Assembly (NCBI GenBank): GCA_009995385.1
Contig: JAACPT010000003.1
Span: 1 to 49,163, forward strand
DNA: 49,163 nucleotides
DNA from: Candidatus Parcubacteria bacterium
GTDB taxonomy: Bacteria; Patescibacteriota; Minisyncoccia; Phycocordibacterales; UBA918
Direction: 5' to 3'
The notes beneath the pieces were generated by a model. The model was given only the letters and a program-made list of their open reading frames with translations, had not been told where the DNA came from and searched no databases. Numbering within the stretch: position 1 is the stretch's first letter; each line of letters starts with the position of its first letter. Both the position numbers and the translations under genes were made by a program. Of this stretch, positions 7,081 to 33,631 are shown one piece after another.

Positions 7081-8310
7081 TTATTTCAATCCATCAGATA
7101 TCGAATAGATCGGTGCGATAAGTGCCAAGGCAAAAAATCCAACTGTCGCACCGATTACCACCATAAGGATTGGTTCGACGATTGTAGATAAGTCTTTAGT
7201 TTTTCGTTCTACTTCTGTTTCGTAGAAGATTGCTAACTCACCCAACATACCAGCTATCTGTCCCGTCTCTTCTCCTACCAGGATCATCTCTCCTACCAAA
7301 ATTGGGTAGAGGTCTTTTCGTTCAATAAACGTCTCCGATAGGGATGTCCCTTTCTCTACACGCGCGGCAGCATCAGCTAAAACTTCTTTGTAAAAAACAT
7401 TTTGTAGGACTTCCTCCGTGATATTAATTGACCGAATCACATCAACACCGGAATTGAGTAGCGAAGAAAGTGTTCGAGCGGTGCGGGCAGCGTTGGTCTC
7501 TTTGGCGAGATTACCAATGACTGGTAAACGTACGATTAGCCATGACGAAGCGATTTTTCCCCACTTCGTGCGAAGAAAATATATAAAACCACCTATCAGC
7601 CCAAAAATCCCCCCAAGTGCAAAGACCGTGTAGTTAACCAAAAAATCACTAACTCCAATCAGGATACTTGTCGTGGCAGGAAGCTCTTTATTCATTCCTT
7701 TAAACACACCAGTTATTTGTGGCATCACGTAAATCATCATCAAAATACCAATAACAAACATGACCGTAACCACAATAGCAGGATAAATCATCGCTCCCTT
7801 CACCTTCTTCTTTAAATTTGAAGCTCGTTCCATCTGAATAGCCAGGGTCTTTAGTGATTCTGCTAAATTCCCGCTCTCTTCTCCTGCTCGCACCATAGAG
7901 ACATAAAGATTATCAAAAGTCTCTGGAAATTCCTTAAGAGTTTCATTAAAAGGGTCACCTTGATTAATGCGCTCGATGACACGTTTTACCACTCCTGTAA
8001 GTCGCGGGTTACTACTTTGTCGCTCGATAACAGAAAGCGCTCGCGTGACGGTAAGTCCAGCAATAAGCATCGAACCAAGATTACGAGTCACCATCACTAA
8101 TTCATCCTCCTTCACTCGACTCATCAAAAAATTGATGCGTTCCATGTTCCAAGCACTCCCCAACTTCAACTTTCCAGGAGCACCAATTGAGGATACGGTG
8201 TGTCCTTGATCACGAGCAATAGAGTAGACAGCAAACCGATCATCGGCTTCCACGGTATTAATGACCTTCTTTCCTTCATGGTCTTCTCCAGTGTATGTGA
8301 ATTTTGCCAT
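7081..8310 (-). CDS. pilC: Type IV pilus assembly platform protein PilC (GspF family)
   Basis: 409 aa with two repeated GspF-type domains (SMLIAGLTVTRAL / SLLNSGVDVIRSI), three TM segments and a C-terminal ALIAPIYSI. Confidence 0.9.
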   Translation of the reverse strand: MAKFTYTGEDHEGKKVINTVEADDRFAVYSIARDQGHTVSSIGAPGKLKLGSAWNMERINFLMSRVKEDELVMVTRNLGSMLIAGLTVTRALSVIERQSSNPRLTGVVKRVIERINQGDPFNETLKEFPETFDNLYVSMVRAGEESGNLAESLKTLAIQMERASNLKKKVKGAMIYPAIVVTVMFVIGILMMIYVMPQITGVFKGMNKELPATTSILIGVSDFLVNYTVFALGGIFGLIGGFIYFLRTKWGKIASSWLIVRLPVIGNLAKETNAARTARTLSSLLNSGVDVIRSINITEEVLQNVFYKEVLADAAARVEKGTSLSETFIERKDLYPILVGEMILVGEETGQIAGMLGELAIFYETEVERKTKDLSTIVEPILMVVIGATVGFFALALIAPIYSISDGLK

Positions 8311-17833: not shown

Positions 17834-18106
17834 ATGAACAAAGCAGACATCATCAGCAAAGTGCACGAGGTCCTCGACACCACCAAAGCAGACGCCGAGC
17901 GCGCTGTAGACGTAGTGTTCAACAGTATTGAAGAAGCCATGAAGGATGGTTCACAGGTATCAATCGCAGGATTCGGTATCTTCGAAGCAAAGATGCGTGC
18001 TTCACGTGAAGCTCGTAATCCACGCACTGGTGAAACCGTAAAGGTACCAGCCATGCGCGTACCAAAGTTCCGCGCAGCTAAGGCACTCAAAGACGCAGTT
18101 AAGTAG
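17834..18106 (+). CDS. hup: HU-family DNA-binding protein
   Basis: 90 aa with MNKADIISKV, GFGIFE and RNPRTGETVKVPA (the HU arm). Confidence 0.9.
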   Translation: MNKADIISKVHEVLDTTKADAERAVDVVFNSIEEAMKDGSQVSIAGFGIFEAKMRASREARNPRTGETVKVPAMRVPKFRAAKALKDAVK

Positions 18107-25298: not shown

Positions 25299-26735
25299 CT
25301 ACTCTCTTGTAGTCAACATTGTTGAAGGATTTTCTAGTACTTGAGAAATATCCTGATCAGTGGTGCCTTCTTGTTCCGACGCAGCAGGTGCTGGAGTTAT
25401 TTGTTCCCCACTTTCTATTTTAGTAGTAGCATCCTCATCGTTTTCCTCTGTCGCGGGGGTATAAAAACGCTCTAAAAGAGTGATGGTATCACGACTCAGT
25501 ATTTGCGCTTCTATTCCTAATGCTACAAAGACATCATGCTCTTCTGTCGAAGATGCCATTTTTTCCATTAAAGAAAGAATCGTTGCCTTACCAAGTTGTG
25601 CTTTCTCAGTAACCTCCTCATCAGTAACCGTTGCAAGCATTAGTTCAATCTGCGCTAATTCTACAGTAAGTGCTTCTGTGGTGCTGGCAATGTTTACTTT
25701 CTTTTCTTGAGTGGTTGGCACCATCGGAACAAGCGTCTCAATGTCTACTGTCTTAGCGATGATTAATTCGTTAATAAAAATAATCACTCGTTGCGTTCGT
25801 TGCATTACTTCAACCAACGACTGTTGTGCTTTTACTTCATCGACTTCTGACAACGCGATGACTTCGTCTATTGACCGCTCCAAATCTTCAATTCGACGAG
25901 TCACGCCAGCCAAATCTTCAGCCGAAACAGTTTTACTCAGTGCAGTATAAAGTTCATAGATACGAGTAGTATTTTGCTCAACTCTTGCCATCAGCTTGTC
26001 ATATGCAGGCAAGGGCACATTGACATCTGCTTCTAGTGTCTTATCTCGAGATTCATCAATCGCATCAGCAATGGGGCTATTAGTCACTTTTGCAGATAAT
26101 GCTTCTTCGCCGTTTACTGCTAACGACGTAGCTGCCTCTTCTTCTTTCAAAGCGGTTGCTTGCACTGCAAGTGTAGTTTCAAGGGTGATGGATGCAATTG
26201 CAGCTTCATCAGCATCTTTTGTGCGTAGCACTTCAATCTCTCGTTTAGCACTCTCTGTATGTGTCCGAACTGCCATAGCAACTTCCGTCTCCATCACTTC
26301 AGTTAAACGACCTTCACTAGCTAAGAGACGGGCTTCCGCCAGACGACGATTGAGTCGTTCTGTTTCCCACTCTACTTTTTGTAAACTATCAAACGTAAGT
26401 GTACTGCGGAGTTCTTCATTGAACTGCACTTTGACTGCGTATAAGGTGTCACCTGGCATGGCATTCTGCGCCACAAAAGGAAGTGCAACAAAGAAAAAGG
26501 CAGCAGTTAGAGCTCCATATTTAAATAAGGCATGGAACGGAACTTTTACGAAAGTAAACGCTTCGGTCATGGTCGGTGCCGAGTGAACATTTTTTTGTTT
26601 GGTCCGCAGTTCAGCTGGCAATGGGTGATACTCCATGTATGAAACAAGTCGTTCCCGAAGTTCACGTCGTTCAGCCGTCTGCAACGTTACAGAAGTAGTA
26701 GCTTTTTTATAAAATTTTTGGCTGAATTGTTTCAT
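25299..26735 (-). CDS. Anti-sigma-factor-like single-pass membrane protein with a long helical (DUF5667-like) ectodomain
   Basis: 478 aa. It is translationally coupled to the sigma gene (TAATG overlap at 26735). A cytoplasmic N-terminus and a TM segment (YGALTAAFFFVALPFV) are followed by PGDTLYAVKVQFNEEL and a helical region. Confidence 0.55.
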   Translation of the reverse strand: MKQFSQKFYKKATTSVTLQTAERRELRERLVSYMEYHPLPAELRTKQKNVHSAPTMTEAFTFVKVPFHALFKYGALTAAFFFVALPFVAQNAMPGDTLYAVKVQFNEELRSTLTFDSLQKVEWETERLNRRLAEARLLASEGRLTEVMETEVAMAVRTHTESAKREIEVLRTKDADEAAIASITLETTLAVQATALKEEEAATSLAVNGEEALSAKVTNSPIADAIDESRDKTLEADVNVPLPAYDKLMARVEQNTTRIYELYTALSKTVSAEDLAGVTRRIEDLERSIDEVIALSEVDEVKAQQSLVEVMQRTQRVIIFINELIIAKTVDIETLVPMVPTTQEKKVNIASTTEALTVELAQIELMLATVTDEEVTEKAQLGKATILSLMEKMASSTEEHDVFVALGIEAQILSRDTITLLERFYTPATEENDEDATTKIESGEQITPAPAASEQEGTTDQDISQVLENPSTMLTTRE

Positions 26736-27328
26736 TATGTAGTTCGTTTTTGCTTGGATTTTCTTCGTTCTTCAGCAAACTCATCGCCGGCTTCGATTTT
26801 TTGTCGTAGTAACTTCAGGCCACGATGAATCCTCACTGAGACAACATTTTCACTTTCTTCGATAAGCTCACTGATTTCTTTTGGACCGAGCTGATCAATG
26901 AATCGGTAAATAATGACGTCACGATACTGTTCTGGTAGTTGCTCAAGTAATTCGAAGGCTTTTTGTCCGTCGATGGTGGCAGCAAGCTGTTCCACTGTAC
27001 TTTCTGACAACTCATCAAATGAACCTTCGTCTACCCCTTCAATCTCTAGGAGTGCATCAAGTGATGTCTCTTTCTGTTTCCGATACTCATCAATAATAAG
27101 ATTATTGAGTACTTTGTATAGAAATGGACGGAAAGAATCAATCGCATATCCATCGCGGATATATGACCAAACTTTAGTAAATGTGTCATGTACCAAATCG
27201 ATTGCTTTTTCACGATTATTTATTCGCAAAGAGGCGTGTCGAAACAGGACATCATTGTACTCATCGAAAGCTTTCAAAAAACGCGTTTCGTGGTCACTTA
27301 CATTGTGAGATGATTCACGTTCTTCCAT
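26735..27328 (-). CDS. ECF-type (sigma-70 family) RNA polymerase sigma factor
   Basis: Region 2 (AIDLVHDTFTKVWSYI ... RPFLYKVLNNLIIDEYRK) and region 4 HTH (LPEQYRDVIIYRFIDQLGPKEISELIEESENVVSVRIHRGLKLL) are present. The start is taken at the ATG at 27328; in-frame alternatives are at 27376 and 27445. Confidence 0.8.
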   Translation of the reverse strand: MEERESSHNVSDHETRFLKAFDEYNDVLFRHASLRINNREKAIDLVHDTFTKVWSYIRDGYAIDSFRPFLYKVLNNLIIDEYRKQKETSLDALLEIEGVDEGSFDELSESTVEQLAATIDGQKAFELLEQLPEQYRDVIIYRFIDQLGPKEISELIEESENVVSVRIHRGLKLLRQKIEAGDEFAEERRKSKQKRTT

Positions 27329-27466
27329 GTAAGCACCATTATATACGTAGACGGACGAAGAGGCACTTTCTTTCATAAGGTAACATGGGATAAACGGTAT
27401 AATGACTATTGAAGAACAAATTGTTTTCGATGGAACGTTTTCCAATAATAAGATTGCTACACAACT

Positions 27467-28376: not shown

Positions 28377-28439
28377 ATTTTACTCCATATTTTTAAGGGC
28401 AAAATAAAGATCACTCTACACTACAACCTAGATTAGGTT

Positions 28440-29031
28440 ATTTCACATGAAACGAATTGATTGGATAAAAAAGATACCCCTAATTGAAAATATGTTTCAC
28501 GTGAAACGTATTGAGTTTTGTTTCATATGTAACATATGGATATAAGTAAAGGTAAAATATTTTTTACTCTTCAGTACAGCTAGTTGTATTATGAGATCAA
28601 TCGAGAATTACGTTCCTAATATATTTTAACGTTGCATATTTTTCACGTGTAACAATCCTTACTGCAATAACATCAATTTCCCAATCTCCTTTATACTGAT
28701 TTTCTTGAATCCAACTCTCTATGGCACGATTCAGACGGTTAATCTTTGCGCGATGAACATTATCCTCCGGCTTCCAAGTTTCACGTGAAATAGAAAGTTT
28801 TAGATCTTGTTTAGTTTCATATGAAACTGTTTTTACTTCAATAAAGCGTATTACTCCAGTTTCACGTGCAACGATGTCAATCTCACCCCATTTTTTAAGA
28901 TAATTAGTGTCTACTATTTCAAGACCTCGTTGCTGTAAGTATTTTGCGGCAATCGACTCTCCATATCCACCAATTATGTTTCGTCTTCCTTTCTTTTCAG
29001 TTTGTTTCATATGGAACGTTTCACGTGAAAC
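28440..29031. repeat. Array of nine parS-like 14 bp palindromes (core GTTTCACGTGAAAC)
   Basis: Sites, with mismatches to the core:
- 28440-53 ATTTCACATGAAAC (2)
- 28494-507 GTTTCACGTGAAAC (0)
- 28520-33 GTTTCATATGTAAC (3)
- 28640-53 TTTTCACGTGTAAC (2)
- 28778-91 GTTTCACGTGAAAT (1)
- 28814-27 GTTTCATATGAAAC (2, still palindromic)
- 28859-72 GTTTCACGTGCAAC (1)
- 29004-17 GTTTCATATGGAAC (3)
- 29018-31 GTTTCACGTGAAAC (0)
The core equals the central 14 nt of the canonical ParB/Spo0J site TGTTNCACGTGAAACA. Confidence 0.7.
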
Positions 29032-29088
29032 GTATTGCTTGATTAGTTGATAGTCTTTGTCTGATAATATGGCTTTAATTATAGCCAA
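28597..29088 (-). CDS. yraN: YraN-family (UPF0102) endonuclease-like protein
   Basis: 163 aa with GGYGESIAAKYLQQRGLEIVDTNY...GEIDIVARETGVIRFIEVKT, the YraN signature. The alternative start ATG at 29010 (MKQTEKKGRR...) would give a more typical 137 aa protein. Confidence 0.8.
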   Translation of the reverse strand: MAIIKAILSDKDYQLIKQYVSRETFHMKQTEKKGRRNIIGGYGESIAAKYLQQRGLEIVDTNYLKKWGEIDIVARETGVIRFIEVKTVSYETKQDLKLSISRETWKPEDNVHRAKINRLNRAIESWIQENQYKGDWEIDVIAVRIVTREKYATLKYIRNVILD

Positions 29089-29131
29089 TAGCTTAAAAGG
29101 ACATGATTACTTTACATCTGTTGATTGTCCT

Positions 29132-29160
29132 TTATCCACCTATACACTTGTTTATCCACA
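29132..29160. promoter_or_regulatory. Two same-orientation DnaA-box matches (TTATCCACC, TTATCCACA)
   Basis: 29132-29140 has one mismatch and 29152-29160 is a perfect match to the consensus TTATCCACA. Both lie in the 125 bp spacer between yraN and tRNA-Gly(GCC). Confidence 0.5.
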
Positions 29161-29288: not shown

Positions 29289-29957
29289 TTATTTTGAAAG
29301 TTTTTTTACAAACAGTTCAGTCCAGCGATCGAGTTTACACTTCAGAGCTGTGCTGCCGATTATAGTATTTCCTGTGCCATTGTGCAACGTCTTTCTTGTT
29401 GGTGTACCATTGGAAATTTGATTTTTATGAAACTGTGAATAAGGAATCCTAATAGCGCGTTGCCATTTTCTCATAGCTGTTTCTTCCTTTACATCGCTTG
29501 GTAGGAGTAACCAAAAGTGAACATTATTTTTTGATATACCTAGGTAATCAAAGGCAAATCTGATGAATATTTGATGAGCATCCATCCGAGTAGTGGAGAA
29601 ACGAATGGTACTTTTATCCTTGCGGTTGCCAAGCGCCAGATACAGCGCTAGTCCAGCCATGAAAAAAGGGTCTTTTTTGTAGTGTTTAAACTCTGTCTCA
29701 GCCGCACGACCAACCTCTACGTACCGCGACTGACGTTCGCCACGCCGTGCTTTAGCAACAAGAGTTAGGCGTTTAGCATTTTCAATACCAGCTCTTTTAA
29801 CATTCTGTGTGGTTATTTCAGCTGAAAAAGGCTTATCCTTCAACCATTTTGAAGCTGTGGACTTGGAAATGACACAGTATTTAGCGATCTCCTGCAGCGT
29901 AAAGCCCCGCATACGCAAACTGACGACTTGCTCATATTTCTCACGATTTCGAACCAT
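29289..29957 (-). CDS. N-terminal helix-turn-helix DNA-binding protein, function unknown
   Basis: 222 aa. The resolvase / sigma-r4-like HTH is RGFTLQEIAKYCVISKSTASKWL. I do not recognise the basic middle region or the C-terminal domain. It ends 5 nt before tRNA-Gly(GCC). Confidence 0.6.
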   Translation of the reverse strand: MVRNREKYEQVVSLRMRGFTLQEIAKYCVISKSTASKWLKDKPFSAEITTQNVKRAGIENAKRLTLVAKARRGERQSRYVEVGRAAETEFKHYKKDPFFMAGLALYLALGNRKDKSTIRFSTTRMDAHQIFIRFAFDYLGISKNNVHFWLLLPSDVKEETAMRKWQRAIRIPYSQFHKNQISNGTPTRKTLHNGTGNTIIGSTALKCKLDRWTELFVKKLSK

Positions 29958-30150
29958 ATATCATATATAGCATATACTATCTATATTTGTTCGATTAACC
30001 TGTTGGTAATTTTTTGAGAATTTAGATTAGTATTGATTTTTATTAACTACTTAAGTAAGTCAATGTTAGTGCTTCATAGACACTCCCAATTATGGACATG
30101 CCGCATTGCCAAACAGCCGTTTTCGCCGTATGATAGTCACACCTAGAAAA

Positions 30151-30222
30151 GCGCCTATGGTGAAATGGATATCACAACTGACTTCGGATCAGTCGTTCTG
30201 GGTTCGAGTCCTGGTAGGCGCA
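30151..30222 (+). tRNA. tRNA-Arg (anticodon UCG)
   Basis: Hand fold with acceptor GCGCCTA/TAGGCGC, D arm GTGA/TCAC, and anticodon stem ACTGA/TCAGT with loop CTTCGGA. No encoded CCA. Confidence 0.9.
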
Positions 30223-30250
30223 CAGTAAATTTCCGGTACAATGACCAGTT

Positions 30251-31723
30251 ATGTCCATTCGTCAGATAGACATCCCAATTGAAGTAAAGCAAGTAGCAAA
30301 AACCCTTGAAGATAATGGTTTTGAAGCTTTTATTGTGGGCGGTTGTACGCGAGACCTTATGCTTGGAAAGACCCCAAAAGACTGGGACCTGACTACAAGT
30401 GCACAGCCCACTCAAATTCAAGCGTTATTTCCAGAACACTACGCTAATAATGACTACGGCACTATCGGTATCAAGACAGAATCAGACGACGATACTTTAA
30501 AAATCATTGAGGTCACGCCGTACCGCGCTGAAGGTAGATACACTGATGCCAGACGTCCAGACAGCGTCACTTTTGGCGTCTCACTAGAAGAAGACCTTAA
30601 ACGTCGTGATTTTACCGTTAACGCGCTAGCTTTTCGTATTTCTACTGGTGCACTCATCGATCTTTTTGAAGGTAAAGATGATCTTGTAGCAAAGCGATTG
30701 CGGGCAGTAGGGAAGGCTGAGGAACGATTTGCGGAGGATGCACTTCGCATGATGCGGGCAGTTCGCTTGGCAGCTGAACTTAATTTCATGATTGAAGATG
30801 AAACCATGTCAGCTATCGTAAAAAACAGCAACCAATTACGCCGTATTTCTGTTGAACGGGTTACCGGTGAGTTTTTACGCACCCTTAATTCTCCGACCCC
30901 CATGCAAGGAATTGTCCTAATGGAAAAATTAGGGTTATTAGAGCATTTCTTACCAGAACTCCGTATCGGAATTGGGGTAGAACAGGGGGGAGCTCACATT
31001 TATGACGTCTACGAACATCTTCTACGCACCATGCAAGCGGCGGCAGATAAGGATTTCTCCCTAAAGTTACGCTTGGCAGCACTTTTTCATGACATTGCAA
31101 AACCGCAGACACGAAGGGAAGGAGGTAAAAACAAACAATACACCTTCTTTGGACACGAAGTAGTGGGAGCACGGATGACTAAAAAGATACTGGAGCGCCT
31201 CAAACTTCCCCGTGAGACAATAGATGAAGTGGTAAATTTAGTCCGTTGGCATATGTTTTTTGCTGATCCCGAAGAAATTACCTTGGCGGCAGTACGGCGT
31301 ACTATTACTCGCATCGGAGAAGATCACATCGAAGAATTACTTAATCTTCGTGTCTGTGACCGTATTGGTATGGGAAGACCAAAAGAGCAACCATTCCGCT
31401 TCCGTAAATACAAGGCTCTGGTTGATCAAGCCCTTCGTGACCCTATTTCAGTAAAAATGCTCAGAATTGACGGAGTTCGTATCATGGAGCTAACAGGAGA
31501 AAAACCAGGGAAAAAACTAGGCTACATCCTGAATGCTCTGCTTGAAGAAGCCCTGGAAGATGCGAGTAGAAACACGTCAGAATATTTAGAAAAACGTACA
31601 CTAGCGCTTATACAACTACCTGAAGACGAATTGTTTATTCTGGCTGAAGCGGGGAAACAAAAACAAGCAGCAGAGGAATCAGCGGCTTTAAAGGACATTG
31701 CTCGGGAACACCATATAGGGTAG
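30251..31723 (+). CDS. cca: CCA-adding tRNA nucleotidyltransferase with HD domain
   Basis: 490 aa with GGCTRDLMLGKTPKDWDLTT (polymerase-beta nucleotidyltransferase head), RRDFTVNAL and the HD motif LFHDIAKP. Confidence 0.9.
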   Translation: MSIRQIDIPIEVKQVAKTLEDNGFEAFIVGGCTRDLMLGKTPKDWDLTTSAQPTQIQALFPEHYANNDYGTIGIKTESDDDTLKIIEVTPYRAEGRYTDARRPDSVTFGVSLEEDLKRRDFTVNALAFRISTGALIDLFEGKDDLVAKRLRAVGKAEERFAEDALRMMRAVRLAAELNFMIEDETMSAIVKNSNQLRRISVERVTGEFLRTLNSPTPMQGIVLMEKLGLLEHFLPELRIGIGVEQGGAHIYDVYEHLLRTMQAAADKDFSLKLRLAALFHDIAKPQTRREGGKNKQYTFFGHEVVGARMTKKILERLKLPRETIDEVVNLVRWHMFFADPEEITLAAVRRTITRIGEDHIEELLNLRVCDRIGMGRPKEQPFRFRKYKALVDQALRDPISVKMLRIDGVRIMELTGEKPGKKLGYILNALLEEALEDASRNTSEYLEKRTLALIQLPEDELFILAEAGKQKQAAEESAALKDIAREHHIG

Positions 31724-31745
31724 TCTTTTATAAAGGACATATTAG

Positions 31746-31771
31746 AAAAACGGCCCTGTTGAGCCGTTTTT
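31746..31771 (+). terminator. Rho-independent terminator after cca
   Basis: AAAAACGGC-CCTGTTGA-GCCGTTTTT. Confidence 0.65.
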
Positions 31772-31793
31772 CGGTATTTCCGCACCCACCTAA

Positions 31794-31991
31794 CTATCGT
31801 AGTGGCCCTATACACATTCTTGTTTGCACTTCATTAGAGTTAGGTAAGCTCATTTCAAAATCTATTCCAAAACAGGGAGAGTCCTGGGAATAGAGGGATT
31901 CAAACGGTATATAGTAGATATGTAATATCTGAGTTAGAAGAAACAAAATGAAAATAAGTGCTGCGACAATAAACTTCCATTTTCTTTTCAC
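31794..31991 (-). CDS. Possible small membrane protein (65 aa, GTG start)
   Basis: There is one clear TM segment (FIVAALIFILFLLTQIL). There is no RBS, the start is non-ATG, and I recognise no homology. It could be a chance ORF. Confidence 0.25.
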   Translation of the reverse strand: MKRKWKFIVAALIFILFLLTQILHIYYIPFESLYSQDSPCFGIDFEMSLPNSNEVQTRMCIGPLR

Positions 31992-32577
31992 TACAAAAAG
32001 TATAACATGTTGGTCACCCGTACTCTGTGCCAGTATTATTCTAAATTACAATGAAACATTCGCATCGATAGTACTCGGAATATGGATGGGCACTTAACCC
32101 CGTCCAGGAATTCACGCTAGGAATTGCGTGAATTCGGACGTAAATTCACAATATGTCCTTTGGGCACTTGTTCATTTAAAAAAAGACCTGAAGGAATCGG
32201 GAGCCAATCTGTAGTGATTATCAGCTGCCGGTGCCTTCAGGTCTTATAATAAATGAGCTTGCTGTTGGAGGATTATGGTAATCCAAGTGGGCGCTTACAA
32301 TTGAAGCTAACCCGATCCGAAGCTCTACGTTGTTGCGAGAGATGTACGTTATTCCGACTTTGCGCTTCTAGATGATTTGCAATGTCTGTACTCTCTCTTA
32401 TAGGGTGGGATGTTATGAACGTTTTGAGTAAGAGTCTTTTGACTCTTGGAGGTAATACTCAATTGTATTTTGGAAGATCTCTTTAAGGGGAACCTCGAGG
32501 GAGTTGGTTAGAATTGTTTCTACTCAACTCTCTCGAGATGCCTGCTCGCCCTTTCTGGGCCTGTCACTATAGTAGTC

Positions 32578-32640
32578 TTTGTAAAGGACAGTGTAAAGGA
32601 CAGTCTTGTGGATAACTGTTGATAAGTTGTCCTTTACAAA
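32578..32640. repeat. Iteron-like unit: a 13 bp inverted repeat enclosing a tandem 12-mer and two DnaA-box matches
   Basis: TTTGTAAAGGACA (32578-90) pairs with TGTCCTTTACAAA (32628-40). GTAAAGGACAGT is tandemly repeated at 32581-92 and 32593-604. TGTGGATAA at 32607-15 is a perfect DnaA box, and TGTTGATAA at 32617-25 has one mismatch. Confidence 0.6.
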
Positions 32641-32833
32641 TTTACTTGACTAAATTACGTTCCGTGTCTTTCTTATACTATACTTTTTGGTTCAGCTAGT
32701 GCGTGGGATGTATTAGCAGTAGTAAATCATCCCGTAGCGATTTCTAATTATAATAAGGTCTCCTGTCCGACTACATAAATAATGGAGCGGGGGCGATTGA
32801 TCTCTGCCAATATATTTTATGTAAGAATGAACA

Positions 32834-33631
32834 TTATAAATCAAGGCTTAATTCAACTGAAACAGGGCAGTGGTCGGAACCCATGACATTTGAGTGGATG
32901 CGCGCGTTCTTAATCATCGGAATCAAATCTTTCGAGGACATAATATAATCAATACGCCAACCAATATTTCGTTCACGAGCTCCGGCAAAATGTGACCACC
33001 ACGTATAATTATTTCCTTCCTGATTGAAGAGTCGAAAGGTGTCCGTAAAACCCTTATCTATCATCGCTTCTATGCCAGCACGCTCCTCATCAGTAAAACC
33101 TTTCTTACCTCGATTTTCTTTTGGCCTGGAAAGATCAAGCTCAGTGTGAGCAACATTGAAATCTCCACAAAAAATAACTGGTTTTACTTGCTGTAGTTGA
33201 TCCATATATTCCAAATAGGCAGGGTCCCATTGCTGTCGCATGGCAATACGTGAGAGGTCATCTTTGGCGTTTGGGGTATATACCGTACTGACAAAGAATG
33301 GTTCAAATTCAGCCACCATGGTTCGTCCCTCTTTCAGAGTATCACCGTACTCATCTGCTAGTTGGTATTTGGTGGCGATGTTCGCTGGCAACCCATGCTG
33401 CACAGCAATTGGGGTGTGTTTTGTAAATATAGCTGTTCCAGAGTACCCTTTGCGCTCTGCCGAAAACCAATACTCTTCGTAGTCTTCAAAATCAAGATCA
33501 ATCTGGTCTTGATTTGCTTTGGTTTCTTGTAGACAGAGGATATCTGGCTGGTGTTCAGCTAAAAATGGCTCTAATAGACCTTTTTTATGTACGGCACGAA
33601 TTCCGTTTACGTTCCATGAATAGATTTTCAT
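32834..33631 (-). CDS. xth: Exodeoxyribonuclease III (AP endonuclease)
   Basis: 265 aa with MKIYSWNVNGIRA, LCLQETK, GDFNVAH and SDHCPV motifs. Confidence 0.95.
   Translation of the reverse strand: MKIYSWNVNGIRAVHKKGLLEPFLAEHQPDILCLQETKANQDQIDLDFEDYEEYWFSAERKGYSGTAIFTKHTPIAVQHGLPANIATKYQLADEYGDTLKEGRTMVAEFEPFFVSTVYTPNAKDDLSRIAMRQQWDPAYLEYMDQLQQVKPVIFCGDFNVAHTELDLSRPKENRGKKGFTDEERAGIEAMIDKGFTDTFRLFNQEGNNYTWWSHFAGARERNIGWRIDYIMSSKDLIPMIKNARIHSNVMGSDHCPVSVELSLDL

Follow-up and report, generated by a model that had tools for sequence, protein, structure and literature searches.

What occupies the space between the convergent genes cca and xth in this Candidatus Parcubacteria contig? The window, which is the whole stretch of 49,163 nucleotides that was analysed (JAACPT010000003.1, positions 1–49,163), contains an island at 31992–32833 that an original prediction had described as lacking any ORF of 60 or more amino acids and as packed with strong helices. 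The longest ORF in the island is indeed 49 aa, and its base composition is normal, as described (GC 0.41–0.43, the same as in the rest of the window). The truly ORF-free gap is wider (31724–32833, 1.1 kb) and is bounded by the stop codons of the convergent genes. The island had been ascribed to an unclassified large ncRNA, a replication-origin or iteron region, or the carcass of a small inserted element. The best explanation for its core is, with high probability, an independently transcribed structured ncRNA gene accompanied by its predicted promoter and terminator. The gene would lie between the neighbours and flanks as follows:

30251–31723, plus strand: cca, the left neighbour, convergent
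31745–31772, plus strand: cca terminator hairpin, bidirectional in shape (inverted repeat; fold z = −4.2)
31773–32177, no strand: unconserved spacer from the cca terminator to the RNA gene, holding the hairpin 32101–32140 and a possible gene remnant
31800–31916, minus strand: possible gene remnant, with a weak resemblance to a 135-aa ORF of the relative L003
32178–32562, minus strand: predicted structured ncRNA gene of ~385 nt (predicted to start at ~32562 and to end past the U-tract at 32178), matched by covariance models R1 and R2
32641–32833, minus strand: xth 3′ flank, outside the conserved RNA and similar only in L002 (75% over 174 nt)
32834–33631, minus strand: xth, an ExoIII-like gene, the right neighbour

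All six of the helices originally listed exist, but the conserved RNA covers only 32178–32562, or ~385 of the 840 bp of the island. The helix at 32101–32140 is real (15 bp, z = −4.6) and lies outside the conserved element; the one at 32703–32735 is weak (z of about −2) and is kept only in the closest relatives. The spacer varies in length among relatives, and the only part of it in common, with L012/L015-type loci, is its last ~80 nt. In the L001 locus the conserved match starts ~60 nt past the end of the cca match. A tblastx comparison gave a weak match of the spacer to L003 (7545–7661, minus strand; 54% over 39 aa, E = 2.6e-8), within the 135-aa ORF at 7521–7928. Decay of a gene, or of a small inserted element, could be read into the left flank (31770–32177), which is unconserved, variable in length and weakly similar at the protein level to the ORF of a relative. 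As an account of the core, the same idea is exceedingly unlikely. At the DNA level the core remains 70–90% identical among genomes with 62–88% identity between their cca proteins, it is single-copy per locus and has no repeats elsewhere in the window, it carries no ORF signal, and its compensatory base changes refute decay.

Of 74 related genomes, 46 have the core downstream of cca according to BLASTN and nhmmer. The R1 model matches the RNA in all 47 reference sources, window included, as well as 56 of the 59 matches from a pattern scan of metagenomes; every carrier among these reference sources and 56 metagenome contigs belongs to the Patescibacteria. The other three pattern matches (L086, L097 and L123) lie inside protein-coding ORFs and fail R1, and were therefore rejected as chance matches. 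One carrier is a complete genome (CP060229.1), and several of the matches are on Hainich H41 contigs. In the main family, every contig of sufficient length has xth upstream on the strand of the RNA and cca in convergent orientation. The homologous RNAs range from 260 to 669 nt (median 392), and their longest ORFs (median 50 aa) show no excess of coding potential over shuffled sequences (57 aa). The range of the family is narrow, and R1 has no significant match in lineages whose cca falls below ~58% identity. In two distant lineages (L061 and L074) R1 scores only 3–5 bits, so homology of the RNA is unproven there. The cassette of promoter, RNA and terminator occurs on either strand relative to cca in distant lineages, which points to an autonomous unit.

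The 388-nt core folds with a z-score of −7.45, and its homologues reach −6 to −13 on either strand. RNAalifold recovered one helix only from a plain MAFFT alignment of diverse members. As plain alignment was insufficient, we used covariance models seeded from close relatives for the 5′ domain (R1, alignment A4) and the 3′ domain (R2, alignment A7); the central domain is outside both. R1 matches the window at 32400–32565 (minus strand, 186 bits) and R2 at 32178–32336 (minus strand, 163 bits). From 5′ to 3′ along the predicted RNA, the fold comprises:

32548–32560, minus strand: 5′ hairpin GCCC-AGAAA-GGGC with the near-invariant loop AGARA (helix 1 of R1/A4)
32492–32541, minus strand: long variable hairpin (A4 helices 2–5, all 21 pairs changed on both sides)
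32424–32462, minus strand: hairpin with the near-invariant single-stranded UUACCUCCAA at 32455–32446 (A4 helices 6–8, covarying)
32432–32445, minus strand: inner hairpin of 32424–32462, often GAAA- or GCAA-capped
32337–32397, minus strand: variable central hairpin domain (MFE fold; compensatory changes seen by eye)
32255–32325, minus strand: three-way junction of a GAGCUU/AAGCUC closing stem and two hairpins (R2/A7 helices 1–4, all 20 pairs changed on both sides)
32178–32245, minus strand: long conserved terminal hairpin (32183–32245) followed by U7, a predicted intrinsic terminator (A7 helix 5)

Compensatory changes were found in both modelled domains, with 74 of the 82 modelled pairs changed on both sides, although the fitting of R1 and R2 to the minus strand slightly biases the pair counts. 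For the 5′ domain, 34 of 38 pairs are changed on both sides (313 such cells versus 82 in shuffles) and 91.7% of cells are paired, compared to 30–48% with partners slid. The equivalent values for the 3′ domain are 40 of 44 pairs (414 cells versus 109) and 92.7% versus 29–50%. Three of the helices picked out from the single sequence are borne out by this analysis: 32428–32448 and 32494–32537 both covary, and 20 of the 24 modelled pairs in 32183–32245 show compensatory changes. The 5′ hairpin is paired in 100% of cells and has one covarying pair (CG 41, UG 4, UA 2). In several short-form homologues, the long variable hairpin has shrunk to a short stem with a GNRA tetraloop cap, and the central hairpin domain ranges from ~60 to >200 nt. 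The near-invariant loop displayed by the 32424–32462 hairpin is given as UACCUCCAA; alignments A1 and A2 show no variation in its CUCCAA, and a second CCUCCAA is located at 32263–32269, within the three-way junction domain. A UUCC-GGAA contact is a candidate pseudoknot.

The strand of the RNA had been read as plus from G-T pairs that would be G-U in a plus-sense transcript and A-C in the opposite sense. The pairs are real, but counting them does not settle the strand. Where the two strand predictions share a pair, G-U and A-C are near-balanced (106 versus 96); in model-based alignments the counts are 48 versus 44 and 120 versus 79, and the RNAalifold structure of each strand inflates its own G-U count. 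We rejected both the wobble pairs and the MFE as guides to the strand. The MFE is always lower on the plus strand, yet the z-scores are equal on the two strands (−8.5 plus, −9.3 minus), which makes the MFE difference an effect of composition. Other signals point to the minus strand, starting with a promoter identified in a consensus scan:

32569–32597, minus strand: sigma-70-type promoter with −35 TTTACA (32597–32592), a 17-nt spacer and −10 TACTAT (32574–32569)

A promoter of the pattern TTTACA-17-TAnnAT keeps a fixed distance in 82 of the 86 distinct loci: the −35 is TTTACN in 81 and the spacer 17 nt in 81, and exactly 6 nt separate the end of the −10 from an AGGCCC anchor in 82. At the other end, the last 7 nt contain 5–6 U in all 82 distinct RNAs, a minus-strand tract that corresponds to the plus-strand A-run at 32178–32184; the plus-strand 3′ flank is not U-rich. 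GNRA tetraloops number 44 of 159 on the minus strand (28%) and 9 of 184 on the plus strand (5%), and unpaired consensus positions on the minus strand are 39–40% A and 8–13% G. By the promoter, the terminator, the GNRA loops and the composition of unpaired bases, the core is read as an RNA gene on the minus strand, its transcript, ends and strand being predicted from sequence.

A structured ncRNA on the plus strand, perhaps co-transcribed with cca, would agree with the lower plus-strand MFE of the gap (−334 versus −297 kcal/mol), with a core MFE ~27 kcal/mol lower on that strand in 17 of 17 homologues, and with some positions where G-U, G-C and A-U exchange on the plus strand (e.g., 338/393 and 350/381). 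It is nonetheless highly improbable. Besides the equal z-scores and the evenly divided wobble pairs, the plus strand has no conserved promoter, the spacer that would lie upstream is unconserved and variable in length, and cca already has its own terminator. Furthermore, the conserved A-run before the first hairpin makes sense only as a minus-strand U-tract, GNRA loops are at chance level on the plus strand, and a plus-strand RNA would make the unpaired positions U/G-rich.

A minus-strand transcript could also belong to the xth mRNA, as a cis-acting 3′ UTR or a processed tail, rather than come from an independent gene. In the main family, the RNA always follows xth on the strand of that gene, and no convincing xth terminator separates the two (the hairpin at 32703–32735 has a z of about −2 and no U-tract). 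Against this reading, 82 of 86 loci have a near-consensus promoter immediately ahead of the conserved block, the 190 nt from xth to the promoter are poorly conserved, and in distant lineages the promoter cassette is inverted and faces xth. An xth-borne RNA therefore has only a very slim chance of being correct, and an independently transcribed minus-strand gene remains the reading that we develop below.

Does this RNA belong to a known family? We scanned the window, the 411-nt core, the 1.4-kb gap and three homologue sets with Rfam 15 (4227 covariance models) at gathering thresholds and at E ≤ 10. No credible match was found in the window, core, gap or homologues at E ≤ 10, only chance-level miRNA and snoRNA matches far below gathering scores, in agreement with the proposal that the RNA is unclassified. 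In the window ARAGORN identified five tRNAs but no tmRNA, which would be marked by a tRNA-like domain and a tag reading frame. The original prediction had recognized no tmRNA, RNase P, SRP or 6S signatures. A full-text literature search also found no description of such an RNA.

Universal RNAs can be hard to recognize in this group of organisms. Of 35 circular CPR genomes, 10 were reported to yield an RNase P RNA only with a lowered RF00010 threshold, and the structures required heavy manual refolding (Lui et al., 2021, PMC8172020). The new RNA resembles those RNase P RNAs in size (~390 nt fits), organism group, variable peripheral helices and escape from default Rfam thresholds, and its neighbour cca is a tRNA-maturation gene. 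However, the CPR RNase P RNAs remained detectable by RF00010 at lowered thresholds and kept their core helices (PMC8172020), whereas the 411-nt core, the 1.4-kb gap and the homologous loci had no match to RF00010 or RF00011 at E ≤ 10.

The hallmarks of RNase P RNA are the strands of the P4 pseudoknot (GGAAAGUCC and an ACAGAA-type sequence) and a P1 helix that pairs the 5′ and 3′ ends. By inspection, GGAAAGUCC and ACAGAA are both absent from the RNA and the family consensus, and the ends do not pair with each other: the 5′ end forms a local hairpin and the 3′ end the terminator hairpin. 6S RNA, a stand-alone ncRNA of the abundant type, also has a sigma-70 promoter and often escapes homology searches, but it is a ~180-nt rod with a central bubble. 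The new RNA is twice as long, has separate hairpin and junction domains in a multi-domain fold, and matches neither the 6S (RF00013) nor the SRP RNA (known by its helix-8 motif) or tmRNA models at E ≤ 10. An extremely diverged RNase P RNA, 6S RNA, SRP RNA or tmRNA overlooked by Rfam is, on this evidence, very unlikely.

Parallels are also found among the orphan RNAs raiA motif, ROOL, GOLLD and OLE. They too are stand-alone genes of several hundred nucleotides with their own promoter and terminator, have multi-domain covarying folds with conserved unpaired nucleotides and variable GNRA-capped peripheral helices, and are orphan and lineage-restricted. The new RNA has no sequence or structure match to the Rfam models of these four or of HEARO. 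It also differs in its patescibacterial host, in its promoter with DnaA-box-like sites, and in its single fixed chromosomal slot, as opposed to the phage or varied contexts of the orphan ncRNAs. We conclude with high confidence that the core encodes, on the minus strand, a structured RNA that belongs to a new family, as would befit its conservation, strong covariation and lack of an Rfam match; for the core, the option of an unclassified large ncRNA was the right one.

The remaining strong helix in the original list (32578–32640) does fold (z = −6.2) but is upstream of the predicted transcription start and is made of repeated DNA motifs. Instead of an RNA helix, it is best described as a DNA module upstream of the promoter:

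32607–32625, minus strand: two tandem DnaA-box-like sites 10 bp apart, TTATCAACA (32625–32617) and TTATCCACA (32615–32607)
32580–32590 (minus), 32592–32602 (minus) and 32628–32638 (plus): three copies of TGTCCTTTACA, operator-like DNA repeats upstream of the predicted transcription start

DnaA-box-like refers to the consensus TTATNCACA, from which DnaA binding is assumed, and many copies are the variant TTATCCCCA. Of the 86 loci, 80 have such sites (with at most one mismatch), fixed at −63 and −53, 111 in forward orientation and 1 in reverse. The TGTCCTTTACA repeats number 2–5 copies in 83 of 86 loci; the loci listed have forward copies near −40 and −28 plus a reverse one at −74 or −63. The TGTCCTTTA repeats overlap the −35 and the spacer and are conserved along with the RNA. 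Conservation of the DnaA-box-like sites and the operator-like repeat extends beyond that of the RNA. Among 18 distant-locus promoters studied in more detail are 15 in which a perfect TTATCCACA precedes a promoter of the same type, and both elements recur beside a parS-like cluster 3.4 kb away.

That cluster (28439–29032) is dense and conserved, and next to it is a second conserved DnaA-box-like cluster (29093–29160) with two boxes at 29132–29160. The gene strand switches at ~30.0 kb and the cumulative GC skew has its minimum at ~30.2 kb, not at 32.6 kb; to the right of 30 kb the skew is about 0 rather than positive. The flanks of the DnaA boxes (32607–32625 and 29132–29160) are AT-rich, and inspection by eye revealed no DnaA-trio array. 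A 222-aa HTH protein is encoded nearby (29289–29957). No dnaA/dnaN or parAB gene was found among the 28 window proteins scanned. Given the parS cluster, the window looks origin-proximal.

Could the whole island then be a DNA-level element, such as part of a chromosomal origin or a DnaA-titrating or iteron locus, in which the helices are incidental? The two tandem DnaA-box-like sites and repeated 11-mers at 32578–32640 would fit this reading, as would the second box cluster, the parS-like cluster, the strand switch and the skew minimum. The origin/iteron option has a real counterpart in this module, but the boxes keep a base-pair-exact phase with the promoter and, in distant lineages, change orientation along with the RNA cassette. 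Furthermore, a DNA function leaves the covariation and GNRA loops of the 385-nt body unexplained, the island has two boxes only and no visible DnaA-trio array, and the window has no dnaA and a near-zero skew right of 30 kb. A purely DNA-level element consequently has a very small probability, and it is also improbable, though less so, that the 32578–32640 module doubles as an origin-region DnaA binding site next to the RNA gene.

A DnaA-regulated promoter adjoins the origin in E. coli, where it drives mioC. Like mioC, the RNA gene has DnaA-box-like sequences just upstream of a sigma-70 promoter, origin-proximal signs (here the parS cluster, second DnaA-box cluster and strand switch), and a non-essential-looking transcript that may couple transcription to the state of initiation. 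Unlike mioC, the predicted transcript is a long conserved structured RNA with a strong terminator located 3 kb from the putative origin, the promoter has the additional operator-like motif TGTCCTTTA, and DnaA binding is predicted only. DnaA-dependent control of the RNA promoter, with binding predicted from the consensus, is in our estimation an even bet.

In the mechanism that we propose, transcription of the minus-strand RNA gene would start ~6–7 nt past the −10 hexamer and stop at the U-tract. Initiation would be modulated by DnaA, or a protein of the same specificity, and also by a factor binding the TGTCCTTTA repeats; such dual control would tie RNA levels to replication or the growth state. 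The RNA itself would act in trans as a compact structural RNA, with the conserved A/C-rich single strands and the GNRA-capped peripheral helices building a tertiary fold that may bind a protein or RNA partner. A role as a trans-acting scaffold or regulator is a tentative assignment, and we hold it with less than even confidence. An anti-Shine-Dalgarno role for the near-invariant CCUCC loops was considered and lost ground: an SD-like motif is present in only 1 of 33 window genes and GGAGG is not enriched, making SD binding unlikely.

In other large bacterial RNAs, the combination of such a fold with conserved unpaired nucleotides and GNRA loops pointed to ribozymes or ribonucleoprotein cores. 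A more speculative and rather unlikely scenario is that the RNA represents a Patescibacteria-specific class of large RNAs, DnaA-gated and origin-proximal, with a role in replication or the cell cycle or as a ribozyme or RNP core. In the same scenario, and at the same low level of confidence, the promoter module, with its DnaA box and its TGTCCTTTA operator, would be older than the RNA and would drive different RNAs from the same slot in distant lineages.

The genomes of CPR/Patescibacteria are tiny (~1 Mb) and gene-dense, yet this clade devotes ~0.5–1 kb of non-coding sequence to a single RNA. This RNA is a candidate for a new Rfam family and an annotation marker for these genomes, and the more than 100 sequences now available are enough for R-scape, 3D modelling and cryo-EM. 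Furthermore, the conserved promoter module offers a first handle on origin-region organization and DnaA-linked regulation in this uncultivated phylum.

The island lies in the 1,110-bp stop-to-stop gap between two convergent genes:

30251–31723, plus strand: cca, CCA-adding enzyme (PolyA_pol and HD domains), left neighbour
32834–33631, minus strand: xth, ExoIII-like protein (Exo_endo_phos), right neighbour

As originally predicted, positions 31992–32833 contain no ORF of 60 aa or more, have an ordinary GC content and can fold into all six proposed helices. A search with the cca protein retrieved 74 relatives' loci, nearly all of them under the label of Patescibacteria/CPR metagenome-assembled genomes and three under other taxon names. 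Identity to the window's cca protein ranges from 50 to 88%, and the nearest relative is a Candidatus Elulimicrobium MAG. About 400–500 nt of the gap (32178 to ~32640) are kept downstream of cca in 46 of the 74 loci (BLASTN, nhmmer). The same searches found no conservation among the relatives' loci in the left 400 nt (31770–32177), and in one relative (L001) the conserved block starts ~60 nt past cca. The sole protein-level resemblance in the left part is a weak match to a 135-aa ORF of another relative, L003. It involves positions 31800–31916 of a 65-aa ORF (31794–31991, minus strand) and L003 7521–7928 (tblastx, 54% over 39 aa). This 65-aa ORF is probably what is left, in truncated form, of a small gene that some relatives have between cca and the RNA, and 31770–32177 is the variable spacer that holds it. 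The spacer also has a strong 15-bp hairpin (32092–32150, z = −4.6) with two EcoRI-site palindromes, a short way outside the RNA gene; ~80 nt around it are common to L012/L015-type loci only.

The 388-nt core folds much better than shuffled sequences (z = −7.45), and compensatory changes were already obvious in the first alignment. Because a plain MAFFT alignment of diverse members was inadequate for RNAalifold, we seeded two covariance models with close relatives and aligned the other members with Infernal:

32400–32565: R1, 5′ domain; two-sided changes in 34 of 38 pairs
32178–32336: R2, 3′ domain and terminal hairpin; two-sided changes in 40 of 44 pairs

In R1, 91.7% of cells were paired, versus 30–48% when partners were slid, and double-change cells numbered 313 versus 82 in shuffles; the corresponding values for R2 were 92.7% versus 29–50%, and 414 versus 109. 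The homologues carry no coding signal (median longest ORF of 50 aa versus 57 aa in shuffles). R1 matched all 47 of 47 sources. When metagenomes were scanned for a pattern of two anchors in the 5′ domain, 59 contigs were returned, 56 of them with a true R1 match; the other three were rejected as chance matches inside protein-coding ORFs. The RNA occurs once per locus, and in every contig that is long enough xth lies upstream in the same orientation, while cca faces the RNA gene. Homologues span 260–669 nt (median 392 nt). Some members have large insertions within single helices (L008 7850–8088, L043 7892–8128, L020/L037); in L008 the CCUCC-loop hairpin is enlarged by ~70 nt, and such members reach ~670-nt RNAs. 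Expansion segments in individual helices are typical of large structured RNAs.

The original prediction had listed an unclassified large ncRNA among three possible explanations, to be checked by covariation and against Rfam. The two-sided changes in both models and the lack of any Rfam match bear this out for the core: no Rfam 15 family matched the window, the core alone or three homologue types, whether the cut-off was the gathering threshold or E ≤ 10. ARAGORN found no tmRNA. The RNase P RNAs of CPR bacteria are diverged and require lowered RF00010 thresholds (PMC8172020). An RNase P assignment is not favoured here, as the RNA gave no RF00010 signal whatever and both P4-type strands and 5′/3′ end-pairing were absent on inspection. 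Full-text literature searches turned up no description of the family.

The plus strand had been favoured from G-T pairs, yet the wobble test is indecisive: G-U versus A-C counts were 106 versus 96 on pairs predicted for both strands, and 48 versus 44 and 120 versus 79 in the model alignments. The lower plus-strand MFE is a composition effect, since z-scores are equal on both strands. Four independent features favour the minus strand instead. In 82 of 86 distinct loci, a sigma-70-type promoter (TTTACA-17-TAnnAT) places the end of its −10 element exactly 6 nt ahead of the conserved AGGCCC start. A U-tract follows the terminal hairpin in 82 of 82 distinct RNAs; read on the plus strand, a conserved A-run precedes this hairpin and no U-rich tail lies behind it. 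GNRA loops account for 44 of the 159 tetraloops on the minus strand versus 9 of 184 on the plus, and cap precisely those helices that vary in length. Finally, consensus unpaired positions are 39–40% A and 8–13% G, as in known structured RNAs, whereas the plus reading would be U/G-rich. The gene is therefore predicted on the minus strand, opposite to the strand first proposed, with its start at 32562 and its end at 32178 (~385 nt); it takes up less than half of the island. Its parts, 5′ to 3′ on the minus strand, are:

32560–32548: hairpin GCCC-AGARA-GGGC
32541–32492: long variable hairpin, a short GNRA-capped stem in several short-form lineages
next: conserved single strand CCYUAAAGAG.UC.UUCCA.AA
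32462–32424: hairpin presenting the near-invariant UACCUCCAA
next: conserved strand AACGUUCAUAACA.UCCCACC
32397–32337: variable central domain
next: ACAACGUAGAGC, then a three-way junction (32325–32255) with a second CCUCCAA
32245–32183: long terminal hairpin whose internal loops are conserved, then U7

One of the six helices, 32578–32640, is a DNA-level feature rather than RNA structure; it lies upstream of the predicted start and is built of repeated motifs:

32578–32640: inverted TGTAAAGGACA; tandem DnaA-box-like TTATCAACA and TTATCCACA; two direct TGTCCTTTACA

One of the two TGTCCTTTACA copies supplies the −35 element. The DnaA-box-like sites occur in 80 of 86 loci, fixed at −63 and −53 and with an orientation of 111:1; in the listed loci the repeats lie at ~−40, ~−28, and either −74 or −63. 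The order TTATCCACA, TGTCCTTTACA, 16–18 nt, TAnnnT extends to lineages with cca only 50–58% identical. In distant lineages (L049–L074; e.g., L074 7545–7990, L061 7478–7790) the module sits in the cca–xth gap on either strand, before different or unrecognisably diverged predicted RNAs of ~180–420 nt that fall into two or more sequence groups. Rfam gave no match for them, and R1 scored only 3–5 bits on the two loci tested (L061 and L074). The module therefore predates the RNA and is the better conserved of the two, and the promoter–RNA cassette is a predicted autonomous transcription unit.

The same motif pair recurs between tRNA-Gly and the UPF0102 gene:

29093–29160: second DnaA-box/TGTCCTTTA cluster, TTAAAAGGACA ... 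TGTCCTTTATCCACC ... TTATCCACA

Its 14-mer TGTCCTTTATCCAC has exact copies in 31 of the fetched loci, for the most part 1.1–3.5 kb upstream of cca. The cluster and the RNA promoter may share regulators or belong to one origin region. Seven parS-like sites (matches to TGTTTCACGTGAAACA with up to 3 mismatches) fall within 28439–29032, versus 0.34 by chance, a 600-bp cluster that takes in the UPF0102 gene and its flanks; one more lies at 17998–18013, and 26 related loci have the exact core GTTTCACGTGAAAC upstream of cca. Together these sites suggest a chromosome partition site in an origin-proximal location. At 29958–30250, an AT-rich intergenic region, the coding strand switches from minus for the HTH gene to plus for tRNA-Arg and cca, and the window's cumulative GC skew has its minimum at ~30.2 kb. 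oriC is possibly nearby, although the origin-proximal call is tentative because the window has neither dnaA nor parAB and the rightward skew is about zero. An ECF-type sigma factor gene (Sigma70_r2/r4; 26735–27445, minus strand) is directly followed by a DUF5667 protein gene (25299–26735, minus strand), possibly a sigma/anti-sigma pair.

In this setting the DnaA-box-like sites of the RNA promoter may form part of an origin-region binding set, as at E. coli mioC. Initiation would be modulated by DnaA (or another protein of that specificity) together with a factor that binds TGTCCTTTA. Its GNRA-capped helices, A-rich junctions and near-invariant loops, with a possible UUCC–GGAA contact, suggest that the RNA folds into a compact tertiary structure; it would act in trans, with either a protein or another RNA as its partner. 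The CCUCC loops of the RNA resemble anti-Shine-Dalgarno sequences; SD binding is not favoured because the genome hardly uses SD motifs (1 of 33 window genes within 25 nt before the start codon). TAnnnT −10-like hexamers lie a few bases before many starts in the window. The pattern suggests widespread leaderless or SD-independent initiation among its genes. The sequence evidence strongly supports a real structured ncRNA gene in the island core, one that belongs to an undescribed family and carries an unusual DnaA-box promoter module.
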